Origin: an uncultured Alphaproteobacteria bacterium
GTDB lineage: Bacteria; Pseudomonadota; Alphaproteobacteria; RF32; CAG-239
Reading direction: 5' to 3'
Length of the DNA stretch: 64,000 bases
NCBI GenBank assembly: GCA_934255405.1
Contig: CAKQNT010000009.1
Coordinates: forward strand, 485 to 64,484
Shown in pieces: positions 51,588 to 56,043 of this stretch (the first letter of the stretch is position 1; each line of letters starts with the position of its first letter). The notes beneath the pieces were generated by a model that worked only from the letters and a program-made list of their open reading frames with translations, did not search any database and was not told where the DNA came from. A program made the position numbers and the translations under genes.

Positions 51588-51680
51588 ACGTTGCAGCAAC
51601 AGAGATTATTTAAATTGTTGCCTTGTAAGCATTTTTGCGCTATAAAGGCGGTGTTTGTGTATTACTTAAATTTAATTATT

Positions 51681-51965
51681 ATGGATATATGGGAGAGATT
51701 GAAGAGTTATAATAAAATTACAAATCAGGTGGTTAAGGTTAAGCGCTCCGAAACGCTCGGCGAGTGGGCAGTTTTTTGTTTCATTGAGGTAGATCTCAAC
51801 TATGTCTTGGTATTTAATGAAGCTGATACCAGTAATGTTGTACCCAAAGTTGGTGATATGATCACGGTTATTGAGATTGACAGTAAAATAAAACGAGTTC
51901 TTTTGAACGGAAAGATCTTGTGGTCAGTCTACAGCGCCCGCAATCCCATAAGACTTATATTTTAA
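51681..51965 (+). CDS. Hypothetical small protein
   Basis: ORF only; the start (MDIWERL) is uncertain; AT-rich. Confidence 0.3.
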   Translation: MDIWERLKSYNKITNQVVKVKRSETLGEWAVFCFIEVDLNYVLVFNEADTSNVVPKVGDMITVIEIDSKIKRVLLNGKILWSVYSARNPIRLIF

Positions 51966-52094
51966 TAAGCTATAGCAAAAAGAACCTAAAATTTAGGTTC
52001 TTTTTTTTGCATGCAATATCCTGATTGGATAAGTTTCCTCAGATTATCATAGAAAAAAAGCCTTCAACCAGCTTGATGCTCGTTTTGAGTTTTT

Positions 52095-52436
52095 TCACTT
52101 GTTAGTCATTTTTTTAATTTCAATACCTACGACACCAAATTCTTTTTGACGCTCTAGGGAATAAAATTCTTCCAATGCTTTCATAAGTTCTTGATTTGTT
52201 TCAAAACCAGCATTGTGGCAATTAATCTTATTGCATAATTTTTCAAAGTTATCGGCTCTATGTAATTTGACAACTTGCGCCAAAAAATTATCTTCTGCAT
52301 TAGAAATATTTGAAAATTTTATGATATCTGCAACTTTTATATTTTTCCTCTTATCATCAAACAATCTCAATTCTATTGTTTTTGTTCCTTGTTTCAGCAT
52401 ATTATAATACTTTTCTTTTACGTTTAACGTCCACAT
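52095..52436 (-). CDS. ASCH/PUA-like domain protein (tentative)
   Basis: MWTLNVKEKYYNMLKQGTKTIELRLFDDKR resembles the ASCH N-terminal beta-barrel; AGGAG ribosome-binding site. Confidence 0.4.
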   Translation of the reverse strand: MWTLNVKEKYYNMLKQGTKTIELRLFDDKRKNIKVADIIKFSNISNAEDNFLAQVVKLHRADNFEKLCNKINCHNAGFETNQELMKALEEFYSLERQKEFGVVGIEIKKMTNK

Positions 52437-52508
52437 CTTTAACTCCTTGATTGTGCCGATAATATTTGTTATATTAAATAGAAATTGAGCTTTGTAAAGG
52501 AAATAATA

Positions 52509-53045
52509 ATGAACTATCAAATTAGAGTCATAGATAAATTTTCTAAAAACGATATAGCGCTCTATAAAAATATTGCAAAGCTTATAAGCCCAATCAGTGA
52601 GACTTATCCTAAATACAATGAATGGCTTTTTACCAAATTTTTTCCAGAACTAAAAACCCAAAAAAGAAAAATAATTGTAGCTTATACTAAAAAGAATACT
52701 CCTATAGGAGTGGCTCTTCTAAAAGATTATAATGAAGAAAAGAAAATTTGCAGCTTGTTTGTAAAAGAGGATTGCAGAGGTAAAGGTATTGCAAGTAATC
52801 TTATAAAAAAAAGTTGTGAAGTATTAAATACTAATAAACCTCTTCTAACGGTATCTGATAAAAACTTACCAATATTGCAAAAACTTTTAGATAAAAATGG
52901 TTTTAAATTTTCTTACAAAAGAAGCGGTGTTTATCAAAAAGAAGATACAGAAAATTATTTCAATAATGAAGCTACGGAAATTTTGAAAAAAGACATTTTG
53001 ACACCTTTGTTATTAAGAATAAAAAATAACTCTCAAAAAGAATAA
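52509..53045 (+). CDS. GNAT-family N-acetyltransferase
   Basis: Acetyl-CoA binding motif A (LFVKEDCRGKGIASNLI). Confidence 0.6.
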   Translation: MNYQIRVIDKFSKNDIALYKNIAKLISPISETYPKYNEWLFTKFFPELKTQKRKIIVAYTKKNTPIGVALLKDYNEEKKICSLFVKEDCRGKGIASNLIKKSCEVLNTNKPLLTVSDKNLPILQKLLDKNGFKFSYKRSGVYQKEDTENYFNNEATEILKKDILTPLLLRIKNNSQKE

Positions 53046-53288
53046 TGTAGACTTTTATACGCACTCCTAATACCATTTATTTAATAAATACACTTACTAT
53101 TCTCGAGTTATTTAGATGCAAATTTTTAAACAACAGTTGCATTTTCGGAATAGTTATGCAACTATTAAGGCAAACAGACGAAACAATTAAGATGTAGCAA
53201 TGTTGAATAAACGACAAAGGCTGCGCTTTGTGATGTATCGGCTCAAAATAACTTCCCCTTTATACAAAGGTTATAAGAGATATAGAGC

Positions 53289-54161: not shown

Positions 54162-54295
54162 TTAAGTTTTGGATTTGTATATAATAAGTGAGCGCTTATT
54201 TGGCGAAATGGTGCAGAAATCAGCACCCCAAAATGGTTTGGAAAAAATTATTGCGGCGCCGATAAAAAATGTTTAAGAGATGTAGTCTTAATAGG

Positions 54296-54388
54296 AATAG
54301 ACACGGCTTGCCGCACCTGCTCCGACTGCGGGTCGCCCCCAATCTATGGGTTCAAACGCATGGGATTATTTTTTATTGGTGATGCTTA
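54296..54388. repeat. att-like direct repeat A (tRNA-like fragment plus TTATTTTTTATTGGTGAT)
   Basis: About 90% identical to 55868..55915, and it also shares 55953..55975. The last 7 nt (TGGTGAT) equal the tRNA-Glu 3' end. Confidence 0.55.
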
Positions 54389-54418
54389 ACTCACGGTTTT
54401 CGAACTGAAATTAAACGC

Positions 54419-55669
54419 TTATCTGCATTTTTTTAATTTAGTTACGGCATATTTGTAAACTTCGTGACGAAAAGCTTTGCCATTATCAATCATTTTTTTC
54501 CATAATGTCGATAATTTTTCATCTGCCTCCTTATAACCGCCGTATATCATAGTTTTCAAATCAGGTAATGGAACAAAGTGCTCTTTTTGTTCTAAAGAAT
54601 TTTTTATACCATTTTTAATCAAATTACTTGATATATAAGTCATTAATTGTCCTTCAGGTGTTTTTCCTTCATAACCATAACCTATTCCGTTATGCTCCGC
54701 CATATTGACTTCAAACATGTCTTCCTGCGTCCTTTGCCATTTTTCTCTTATCAAGAACATATTTCCATGTCGCGAAGTAAAATAGCATGGTTTGAGCTTA
54801 AATTCACAATTTTTGGTCGCTCTATCCATGTCATTATCTATGACTCCTTGAAAATGGCTCTTGTGTTCTCTTTGTCTGTCAAACAAATAATTATTGAAAA
54901 AATTATTTGCAACCGTTCTATCTGCAGATTTTGGCCATTTAACATCTGCTGCCGTTATAAAACTTATCATTTGAGATTTAGCAACACCCAAGGCACAAGC
55001 CGGAGAGTGAGCAATTGTTAGCATTTGTGACAAAATTTGCTTTTGTTCATTAGTTGTATAGCCAATTTTATGCATTTCTGATATTAATTTTTTTTCTAAT
55101 TCTAATGCTACATAGCCACCATGACAGTGAGCAACAATAGTCATCATTCGCATACGCCGACAAGCTTCTTCAGTAGCTATTTTCCCTTTCCCATTAGTTA
55201 ATGTTATCCTCGGCTCCAAAACTTTATGATAAAGCTCATCAATATATTGAGGATGATAATCATCTACATCTGCTTTATGGTATATCTTATCATCGTCAGT
55301 TTTGCTATTCAGTGAATTTTCATGATATTTTGAAAAAGCAATACCTCTGGAGGTTGGAGCACTGTTTTGTGATAAATTGTACTTGACACTGAATACGGGA
55401 ATTTTTATTCCCATTGGTCTTAAAATATCTTCTTCAATTATTTTGGCATTACCATTTGCAGATCGATCATTATTCGTTCCATCACCACCCAGACACAACA
55501 CGCAGGGCTCGTCATATGGCACTTTATCAACAATAGACCAACCAAATTTATTATCCTCAGTTTTCTCGGTTCTTAGACCTATTTCTAAAGTACTTACTGA
55601 AGAGCTATTATCTTCCTTCGTGTTGAAAGTTTCTCTATCTGGACTAGGGCCAATCTTTATAGAAATCAT
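54419..55669 (-). CDS. Hypothetical protein (416 aa), possibly alpha/beta-hydrolase-like
   Basis: Contains AHCHGG, which resembles a nucleophile elbow but with Cys in place of Ser. Very AT-rich and framed by the att-like repeats. Confidence 0.4.
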   Translation of the reverse strand: MISIKIGPSPDRETFNTKEDNSSSVSTLEIGLRTEKTEDNKFGWSIVDKVPYDEPCVLCLGGDGTNNDRSANGNAKIIEEDILRPMGIKIPVFSVKYNLSQNSAPTSRGIAFSKYHENSLNSKTDDDKIYHKADVDDYHPQYIDELYHKVLEPRITLTNGKGKIATEEACRRMRMMTIVAHCHGGYVALELEKKLISEMHKIGYTTNEQKQILSQMLTIAHSPACALGVAKSQMISFITAADVKWPKSADRTVANNFFNNYLFDRQREHKSHFQGVIDNDMDRATKNCEFKLKPCYFTSRHGNMFLIREKWQRTQEDMFEVNMAEHNGIGYGYEGKTPEGQLMTYISSNLIKNGIKNSLEQKEHFVPLPDLKTMIYGGYKEADEKLSTLWKKMIDNGKAFRHEVYKYAVTKLKKCR

Positions 55670-55867
55670 ATATTTTGCTCCATTTATTTGTTTATAATAA
55701 CATTTTTCTCTTAAAAGTCAAGTAAGGACCCCTATCATAACCACTTGATTTTACTACATTCTTGCTGCAACGAGTTCGGAAAAACTCCCCAAATAGACAT
55801 TTTAAAAACACAACATCTGAACTAGATTAACTTATTGATATAAAAAGGAAAAGCAGACTTTTTTACT

Positions 55868-55985
55868 GCCTGCCGACTGCGGGTCGAACCCAATCTATGG
55901 GTTCAAACACCGTGGGACTACTGATAAAAAAATAAGCTCTACCGCAAGAGTAGAGCTTATTTTTTTATTGGTGATCCCAACGGGA
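55868..55985. repeat. att-like direct repeat B, which includes an internal bidirectional terminator (TAAGCTCTAC/GTAGAGCTTA) and overlaps the tRNA-Glu 3' end
   Basis: It shares CCGACTGCGGGTCG..CCCAATCTATGGGTTCAAAC and TTTTTTATTGGTGAT with copy A. Confidence 0.55.
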
Positions 55986-56043
55986 TTCGAACCCATATTA
56001 CCACCGTGAAAGGGTGATGTCCTAACCATTAGACGATGGGACC
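55969..56043 (-). tRNA. tRNA-Glu (anticodon UUC)
   Basis: Manual fold: acceptor GGTCCCA/TGGGATC, D-arm GTCT AATGGTTA GGAC, anticodon loop CUUUCAC, T-arm ATGGG TTCGAAT CCCGT, CCA encoded. Confidence 0.85.

Follow-up and report, generated by a model that had tools for sequence, protein, structure and literature searches.

The window analysed here is a 64-kb stretch of DNA (64,000 nucleotides (nt) of contig CAKQNT010000009.1, from an uncultured alphaproteobacterium) in which an AT-rich islet adjoins a tRNA-Glu(TTC) gene. Next to this tRNA, a single gene for a 416-amino-acid (aa) protein is held between two conserved ends, forming a 1.6-kb unit that is probably an integrative cassette and is the subject of this report. 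An earlier note, made from the sequence alone, had described the islet as the decayed product of an integration at tRNA-Glu, framed by two direct repeats (A and B). Read along the minus strand, the order is tRNA-Glu, core, X module copy B, left module, promoter, 416-aa gene, right end with its core, and X module copy A:

55969-56043, minus strand: tRNA-Glu(TTC), the docking gene (ARAGORN; Rfam tRNA, 62.1 bits)
55967-55975, minus strand: proximal core 'O', ATCACCAAT, the putative crossover region on the attL side
55854-55974, minus strand: X module copy B (nhmmer with the X profile, E = 1.6e-15; inverted repeats I1 and I22)
~55925-55966: bidirectional terminator hairpin in X copy B
~55893-55925, plus strand: inverted relic of the tRNA-Glu T-arm and acceptor in X copy B
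55873-55908: 36-nt core of repeat B in X copy B
55757-55878, minus strand: left module (P' arm; nhmmer left profile positions 14-135, E = 2.7e-18; alignment with 19 relatives)
55694-55721, minus strand: candidate sigma-70-like promoter, TTGACT-16-TGnTATTAT (10/12 consensus matches with a TG extension; a consensus match only)
54419-55669, minus strand: cargo gene, 416 aa
54371-54412, minus strand: right end, consisting of the P arm GTTCGAAAACCGTGAGTTAAGC and the distal core ATCACCAAT at 54375-54383, on the attR side (nhmmer E = 1.4e-12)
54300-54382, minus strand: X module copy A, corresponding to repeat A and without the terminator hairpin; its 36-nt core is 54322-54357

The 9-base-pair (bp) core ATCACCAAT comprises the last 7 nt of the tRNA (ATCACCA, the complement of which is 55969-55975) plus 2 nt and is duplicated at both junctions, so that the tRNA stays intact. 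The element is bounded at one target by an attL and an attR that have this short core in common (55967-55975 and 54375-54383); both of these attachment-site (att) ends, of the type found on autonomous islands, are present around the single hydrolase gene, and a recombinase is absent. The window's left module lacks the first 13 positions of its profile, and the inner copy of the core has been lost at the junction between X and the left module.

The repeats described earlier are real: 54322-54357 and 55873-55908 agree at 94% identity over 36 nt (two matches, found in 0 of 100 shuffles), and ATTGGTGAT, whose last 7 nt are indeed the tRNA-Glu 3' end (55969-55975), recurs at that end (55967-55975) and at 54375-54383, with five copies in the window against 0.8 expected. 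Repeats A and B are not the att sites, however: both are X modules, and the ends of the element are the left module and the right end. Computed base composition likewise bears out the AT-richness of the islet, the G+C content being 0.327 for 51590-55968 (0.26-0.36 for its genes), compared with 0.417 for the whole window and with 0.454 and 0.468 for the core flanks at 49043-51587 (MDH, AspAT and LMW-PTP) and 56044-58848 (deacetylase and LysRS). The islet is not unique in this respect: the block at 42.0-48.8 kb, a CRISPR-Cas9 locus, has a value of 0.338, and minor dips occur near tRNA-Phe and tRNA-Pro.

Conserved ends and cassette arrays in related genomes

We compared the unit with about 60 related loci (numbered with the prefix L). 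An exact scan of one genome per species (185,579 species) with the 19-mer GAGTTWAGCATCACCAATA from the right end returned 38 stretches, 32 of them from metagenome-assembled genomes (MAGs) of gut and rumen Alphaproteobacteria. The 15 nt upstream of the 19-mer, which were absent from the search pattern, are still about 90% conserved (consensus TAGCTCGTAAACYGTGAGTTAAGCATCACCAATACAA), and a metagenome scan added 18 human-gut loci with a like layout. Matches on three viral contigs were confined to the 19-mer itself and are put down to chance, with no link to phages.

Altogether, 54 loci hold 74 right ends in 69 distinct contexts, never on mixed strands, although several of these loci are near-duplicates and they do not amount to 54 independent observations. 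Wherever a tRNA-Glu (TTC or CTC) is contained in the locus (19/19), it lies upstream of the right end on the same strand. The right end spans about 37 nt, TAGCTCGTAAACYGTGAGTTAAGC-ATCACCAAT, with a mean column identity of 85% over 56 distinct sequences. The left module, of about 125-140 nt, opens with ATCACCAAT and a terminator hairpin, after which comes TTTTCTTTTATTTCCAAGSCTTTCAGCGAGTTCGAATGTT...TTTTGGGAAATTTTACGAACTCGTTT, and in nearly all loci it directly follows either the tRNA 3' end or, within arrays, a right end. Beyond the last right end of an array only its first ~45-60 nt (core and terminator) are found; we infer that the native tRNA flank has these nucleotides as well, the remainder belonging to the element. 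Contigs of 170-380 kb carry one right-end cluster each and the window exactly one right end, near tRNA-Glu, which rules out dispersal in the manner of miniature inverted-repeat transposable elements (MITEs). Sequences resembling the left module (L048/L049, 7923-8033 and 8933-9027; E = 1e-8 and 2e-5) also occur without any right end, close to a gene for a 457-aa protein, a more distant homologue of the hydrolase, whose chromosomal surroundings are ordinary; all or some of the left module may also be present outside cassettes.

Between successive cores, the units of an array measure 0.5-2.8 kb and mostly contain one gene. Arrays extend to four right ends in L009 and three in L026 and L004, with two in many loci. 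Co-oriented cargo genes stop 0-54 nt before the right end, some cargo is inverted, and the range covers several GNAT families, thioredoxin-like and HAD-like proteins, a carboxylesterase, an FAD oxidoreductase, a HerA-like ATPase, proteins without assignment and the 416-aa family.

The same cassette occupies different positions. The 416-aa unit follows tRNA-Glu(TTC) in the window and tRNA-Glu(CTC) in L003, where the gene lies directly 3' of the tRNA at a different chromosomal locus and is flanked by a ~60-nt direct repeat starting with ATCACCAAT; in L004 it stands inside an array of single genes, every one of which has ...GCGAGTTTAGCATCACCAAT and a terminator after it. The three copies share 74-79% nucleotide identity. 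Similarly, unit 2 of L026 and unit 1 of L037 are 92% identical over 1010 nt, and L026/L040 and L009/L043, each a pair from different GTDB species representatives, are 97% and 98% identical. Conversely, the inserts at the orthologous LysRS-deacetylase-tRNA-Glu(TTC) locus differ among the window, L037, L041, L042, L071 and L074, and the content of the interval between AspAT/LMW-PTP and the tRNA varies among these relatives and L024. The integration at tRNA-Glu that had been suspected is thereby supported, as insertion at the tRNA 3' end with the duplicated ATCACCAAT as recombination core.

The candidate recombinase and the proposed movement of cassettes

Clustering all open reading frames (ORFs) of the array loci and annotating the recurrent families pointed to a candidate enzyme. 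A gene for a ~535-aa large serine recombinase (LSR; Resolvase, Recombinase and Zn_ribbon_recom domains) is located upstream of a right end, in the same orientation, in L016, L018, L031, L057 and L066, and is also present in L072, L074 and L075/L076; the sequence of the LSR is only weakly similar to resolvase domains of solved structure. Among L016, L031 and L066 the LSR is 95% identical at the amino-acid level, compared with about 80% for LysRS between species of the group. Three of these loci (L074, L075 and L076), reached through the genomic surroundings of LSR homologues, hold complete islands with the order tRNA-Glu, left module, 11.2-11.3 kb of DNA and right end. The island of L074, at the locus orthologous to that of the window, spans 11.2 kb and encodes Fic, the LSR and a 1232-aa protein (tRNA 5411-5485, left module 5477-5616, right end 16653-16691). 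That of L075/L076, at tRNA-Glu(TTC), spans 11.3 kb and encodes the M and S subunits of a type I restriction-modification system, the LSR, a C5 methylase and an AAA_15/21 ATPase. In the Pfam-annotated gene lists of all three, the LSR is the sole recombinase; Phage_integrase is absent from these lists and from those of L001, L003, L004, L072 and L073. The recombinase linked to these ends is an LSR. Because attL and attR of L075 have ATCACCAAT alone in common, the crossover is placed in the 9-bp core.

Two side observations concern the surroundings of the LSR gene. A small serine recombinase of ~200 aa (Resolvase and HTH_7) occurs in L016, L018, L031 and L040, beside the arrays or just upstream of the LSR, with resolution, cargo inversion and directionality as candidate roles. 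Between the LSR gene and the right end, each island has its own defence-type gene or genes, so that the large elements resemble defence islands in which one cargo bay varies:

L018, 2388-4577: HerA-like ATPase
L066, 6421-8628: SMC-like ATPase
L057, 8722-10650: HATPase_c_3 protein
L072, 11620-13050: ApeA
L075, 11699-14527: C5 methylase and AAA_15/21 ATPase

Since the unit in the window has no recombinase and shares its ends with LSR islands, we read it as a non-autonomous derivative. On this reading, to which we give a probability of about 0.7, positions 54371-55975 are a non-autonomous, single-gene integrative cassette of an LSR-type family, docked at the 3' end of tRNA-Glu(TTC). The family unit, found in uncultured gut and rumen Alphaproteobacteria, consists of a left module, cargo with its own promoter and the ~37-nt right end. 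The LSR would recombine attP (right end, core and left module) with attB (the tRNA-Glu 3' end and its terminator), and one-gene derivatives retaining both ends would be inserted and stacked into arrays by LSR supplied in trans, which would also move them between the two tRNA-Glu loci and between species. Excision between the two cores remaining in the window would leave tRNA-core-X, resembling the array ends of relatives. The comparison shows the architecture and its conservation, the link to tRNA-Glu, the ends common to cassettes and LSR islands, and the occurrence of one cassette at several positions. We infer that the LSR is the enzyme and that mini-cassettes are moved in trans by site-specific recombination; we are highly confident of the architecture and the family assignment, moderately so of the LSR being the enzyme, and less so of mobilisation in trans.

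Several observations weigh against this interpretation. In L074, attL and attR are identical over 41 nt, through the terminator, which is long for an LSR and more typical of tyrosine integrases; the LSR gene lies in the middle of the element and not beside an att site; and the left module, at 125-140 nt, far exceeds what an LSR half-site needs. The 64-kb window yielded no recombinase to tblastn with six LSRs and two small resolvases or to a tyrosine motif screen, and the regular expression for tyrosine recombinases, a weak screen limited to motifs, was negative in the window and in the remaining short loci. The comparison with related genomes proposed in the earlier note did turn up other inserts at the orthologous locus, but these loci, all of them selected for carrying a right end, revealed neither an empty site nor a circular junction or excision product. 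Finally, with a core copy lost at the X-left junction, the unit in the window may be partly decayed.

The modules are also 75-98% identical across species over 40-140 nt, a similarity that would suit RecA-dependent homologous recombination without a site-specific step, with modules and tRNA serving as homology arms, incoming DNA replacing or adding cargo, and the LSR moving the large islands only; the 'minimal mobile elements' of Neisseria are a parallel for cargo exchange by such arms. Most mini-cassettes have no recombinase nearby and both cargo orientations occur, as this account would have it. We nevertheless judge it unlikely, given that junctions are exact at the 9-bp core, that each unit carries a complete joint of right end, core and left module, that arrays grow by whole units, and that a 37-nt right end is short for efficient exchange.

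Decay in place, the explanation closest to that of the earlier note, has somewhat poorer prospects still. Each short unit would then be an LSR island that had lost its backbone by deletion and become immobile, as might be suggested by the LSR gene fragments in the arrays of L016, L031, L055 and L057, by the deletion at the X-left junction and by the lack of recognisable ends in the rest of the islet. Yet the same clean unit is met, with 92-98% identity, in more than one species, in both tRNA-Glu loci and in varying positions; most units are free of backbone remnants, and the cargo stop codon lies uniformly 0-54 nt from the right end. Rather than the residue of a decaying island, the 416-aa gene forms a compact unit with both conserved ends intact, in a design that recurs about 70 times in relatives. 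It is very improbable that the modules are intergenic repeats or regulatory elements (MITE-like, of the repetitive extragenic palindromic type, or a tRNA-mimicking RNA signal in the 3' untranslated region) and the gene variability incidental: the right end always stands just before a terminator and is able to fold into a 6-bp hairpin resembling a T-arm, with ACCA after it (95.5% of cells paired), but covariation is no greater than in shuffles, Rfam returns no match, each 170-380-kb contig has its one cluster and the window its one copy beside tRNA-Glu, and the modules bound 11-kb LSR islands.

Cargo protein, X modules and neighbouring DNA

Neither Pfam nor NCBIfam gave a match for the 416-aa ORF, and a PDB sequence search with its family gave nothing significant. 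It is no orphan, as had been thought: we found 43 homologues, and all those with a named source come from Alphaproteobacteria MAGs. An AlphaFold2 model built from a 36-sequence alignment (pLDDT 89.6, pTM 0.89) retrieved alpha/beta hydrolases when compared with the PDB by Foldseek, the best being the hydrolase domain of Obc1 (5iky; E = 1.4e-6, template-modelling score 0.45), followed by lipases and esterases. The protein is accordingly modelled as a divergent alpha/beta hydrolase with cysteine in its nucleophile elbow (Sm-X-Nu-X-Sm-Sm), which reads A-H-C182-H-G-G after the beta-strand E176-181. C182 is invariant in the 36 sequences, as are D242 and H326. Because the three residues are invariant and follow the canonical nucleophile-acid-histidine order, this AHCHGG motif, previously labelled a pseudo nucleophile elbow, is predicted to be probably a working one with a cysteine nucleophile. 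No right end accompanies the more distant homologues P0029, P0037 and P0011, whose chromosomal neighbourhoods are ordinary.

The X module is free of ORFs and follows the ATCACCAAT core in many relatives. It is made up of the core, a palindromic terminator and a hairpin formed by an inverted and a direct copy of the T-stem and T-loop of the cognate tRNA (GAACCCA-TAGAT-TGGGTTC in the window); complete copies add ~90 nt of GC-rich sequence and then the last ~20 nt of the tRNA. The tRNA-like fragment described earlier is genuine: it copies the T-arm and acceptor 3' strand of tRNA-Glu in inverted and decayed form, and is visible as inverted repeat I22 (81% complementary over 21 nt). Rfam searches with the repeats and modules (gathering thresholds, and E <= 10) gave no match except tRNA. 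Homologues of X occur in L010, L037, L056, L062, L063 and L071; in relatives such as L037, L056, L062, L063 and L071 a core lies on both sides, giving the order tRNA-core-X-core-left. Cognate X modules also follow tRNA-Trp (L013, 3131-3252) and the window's own tRNA-Pro (36105-36195), the hairpin being built in each case from the T-arm 5' half of that tRNA. The X module may have originated as a remnant of some other integration system, as a small RNA or as part of the att site; X modules, seen at tRNA-Pro and tRNA-Trp as well, may be a further functional part of the site. Downstream of tRNA-Trp(CCA) in L013, a cassette for a 454-aa FAD oxidoreductase (1349-3325) combines a Trp-type X module and a 19-nt duplicate of the tRNA-Trp 3' end with a Glu-type right end (…GTGAGTTAAGCATCACCAAT), a mixture that suggests exchange between elements with different tRNA targets.

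Beyond X copy A, the rest of the islet carries accessory genes, among which the ASCH, GNAT and SGNH-like calls of the earlier note were upheld by domain matches:

51591-54161, mixed strands: remaining low-GC islet with accessory genes
51657-51965, plus strand: small ORF
52095-52436, minus strand: ASCH (PF04266, E = 3e-8)
52509-53045, plus strand: GNAT (E = 1e-9)
53289-54161, plus strand: DUF1574/SGNH-like (E = 2e-6, below the Pfam cutoff)

At 51.0-54.4 kb no further cassette end turned up, even at E <= 50; 51.6-54.3 kb is devoid of left, right and X modules at permissive thresholds, and the other array loci hold no homologues of the ASCH, GNAT or SGNH proteins. Homologues of the SGNH-like protein (60% identity) lie in dTDP-sugar/glycosyltransferase and polysaccharide clusters. 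In L024, two tandem paralogues of 231 and 258 aa (5495-7002, after MDH-AspAT) replace LMW-PTP, ASCH, GNAT and SGNH, so that relatives differ in the distal part of the interval as well; the DNA at 51.6-54.3 kb is variable accessory DNA.

A second tRNA-linked islet with a like logic lies at 32231-36273, beside tRNA-Pro(CGG) (36197-36273, minus strand). A 41-nt direct repeat made of the last 7 nt of the tRNA and its terminator (CCGACCATAAAAAAGCCGCCCCTCGTGGGCGGTTTTTTGTG) has one copy at the tRNA end and a distal one at 32271-32231. The distal copy is preceded by an arm, GAGAGTTATC, that is similar to the right end of the Glu type (GTGAGTTAAGC). Between the copies, ~3.9 kb of DNA hold ORFs of 850 and 232 aa, neither with a Pfam match. 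The low-GC type II CRISPR locus (41960-44044 and ~45.3-48.6 kb) comprises an array with ~31 copies of the 36-nt repeat GTTATAGCTTCCTTTCCAAATCAGATATGCTATAAT and beside it a Cas9 gene on the minus strand.

Relation to known systems

Literature searches found no description of this cassette family. Closest in their working are SCCmec, the staphylococcal cassette chromosome (SCC) element, and the Enterococcus cassette chromosome, which like the present elements use an LSR, target the 3' end of a single conserved gene, contain a short core, insert in tandem and occur as remnants that lack the recombinase. Such remnants of SCC are called pseudo-SCC. Both cassette chromosomes are LSR islands at the rlmH 3' end, with att repeats of ~50 bp around a short core, variable cargo and tandem insertion (PMC6222049). 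In the present family, by contrast, the target is two tRNA-Glu isoacceptors and not rlmH, a single LSR takes the place of the CcrA/CcrB pair, recombinase-less units shrink to one gene (0.5-2.8 kb) while each keeps a conserved joint of ~160 nt, and the host is an uncultured Gram-negative gut lineage.

The tycheposons of Prochlorococcus likewise insert at tRNA genes, where they form tandem stacks and leave repeats of part of the tRNA; their cargo is of the niche or defence type, and a minority of tycheposons use LSRs (bioRxiv 10.1101/2020.12.28.424599). They span several kilobases with their own integrase and often replication genes, and recombinase-less arrays of one-gene units are not described there; the tRNA part duplicated at the cassette end here is 7 nt only. 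Cis-mobilisable elements (CIMEs) of streptococcal integrative and conjugative elements (ICEs) are att-flanked units without recombination genes that arise or accumulate by site-specific accretion (PMC5704250), but the ICEs from which they derive have tyrosine integrases, and CIMEs are larger and not known to form arrays of several single-gene units. Classification as a tRNA island of the tyrosine-integrase type fails because the complete elements encode no such enzyme and the 20-nt duplicates of the tRNA 3' end belong to the X modules.

If our reading is correct, the vaguely 'decayed islet' of the window becomes a defined unit with exact ends, set in an uncultured but common inhabitant of the human and animal gut. 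The family would provide a natural attB/attP pair in many variants for an uncharacterised group of LSRs, raw material for genome-engineering tools, and its 37-nt right end would be a sequence tag with which to harvest accessory and defence genes of the lineage from metagenomes.

The likeness to integrons and to clusters of attC sites lacking integron-integrases (CALINs) lies in the co-oriented arrays of mostly single-gene units, a conserved site per unit, a fixed docking site, diverse accessory cargo and the frequent lack of an integrase nearby. The enzymes and sites are different. The Pfam lists and the weak motif screen described above gave no integron integrase (IntI). The site is conserved in sequence and not in structure, with its boundary at ATCACCAAT, and is no attC: it has no R''/R' pair (RYYYAAC ... 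GTTRRRY), since GTTAAGC inside the right end fits GTTRRRY but its inverse-core partner is absent. In further contrast to integrons, the cassette units here have their own promoters and the cargo faces either way. A more far-reaching proposal, which we put forward only tentatively, is that of a serine-recombinase counterpart of the integron, in which LSR acting in trans from the 11-kb defence islands would capture, stack and reshuffle self-promoted one-gene cassettes at two tRNA-Glu genes, each with its att joint. Gene-cassette arrays would then not be exclusive to integrons, and an LSR system would have independently reached a similar plug-in design at a tRNA gene.

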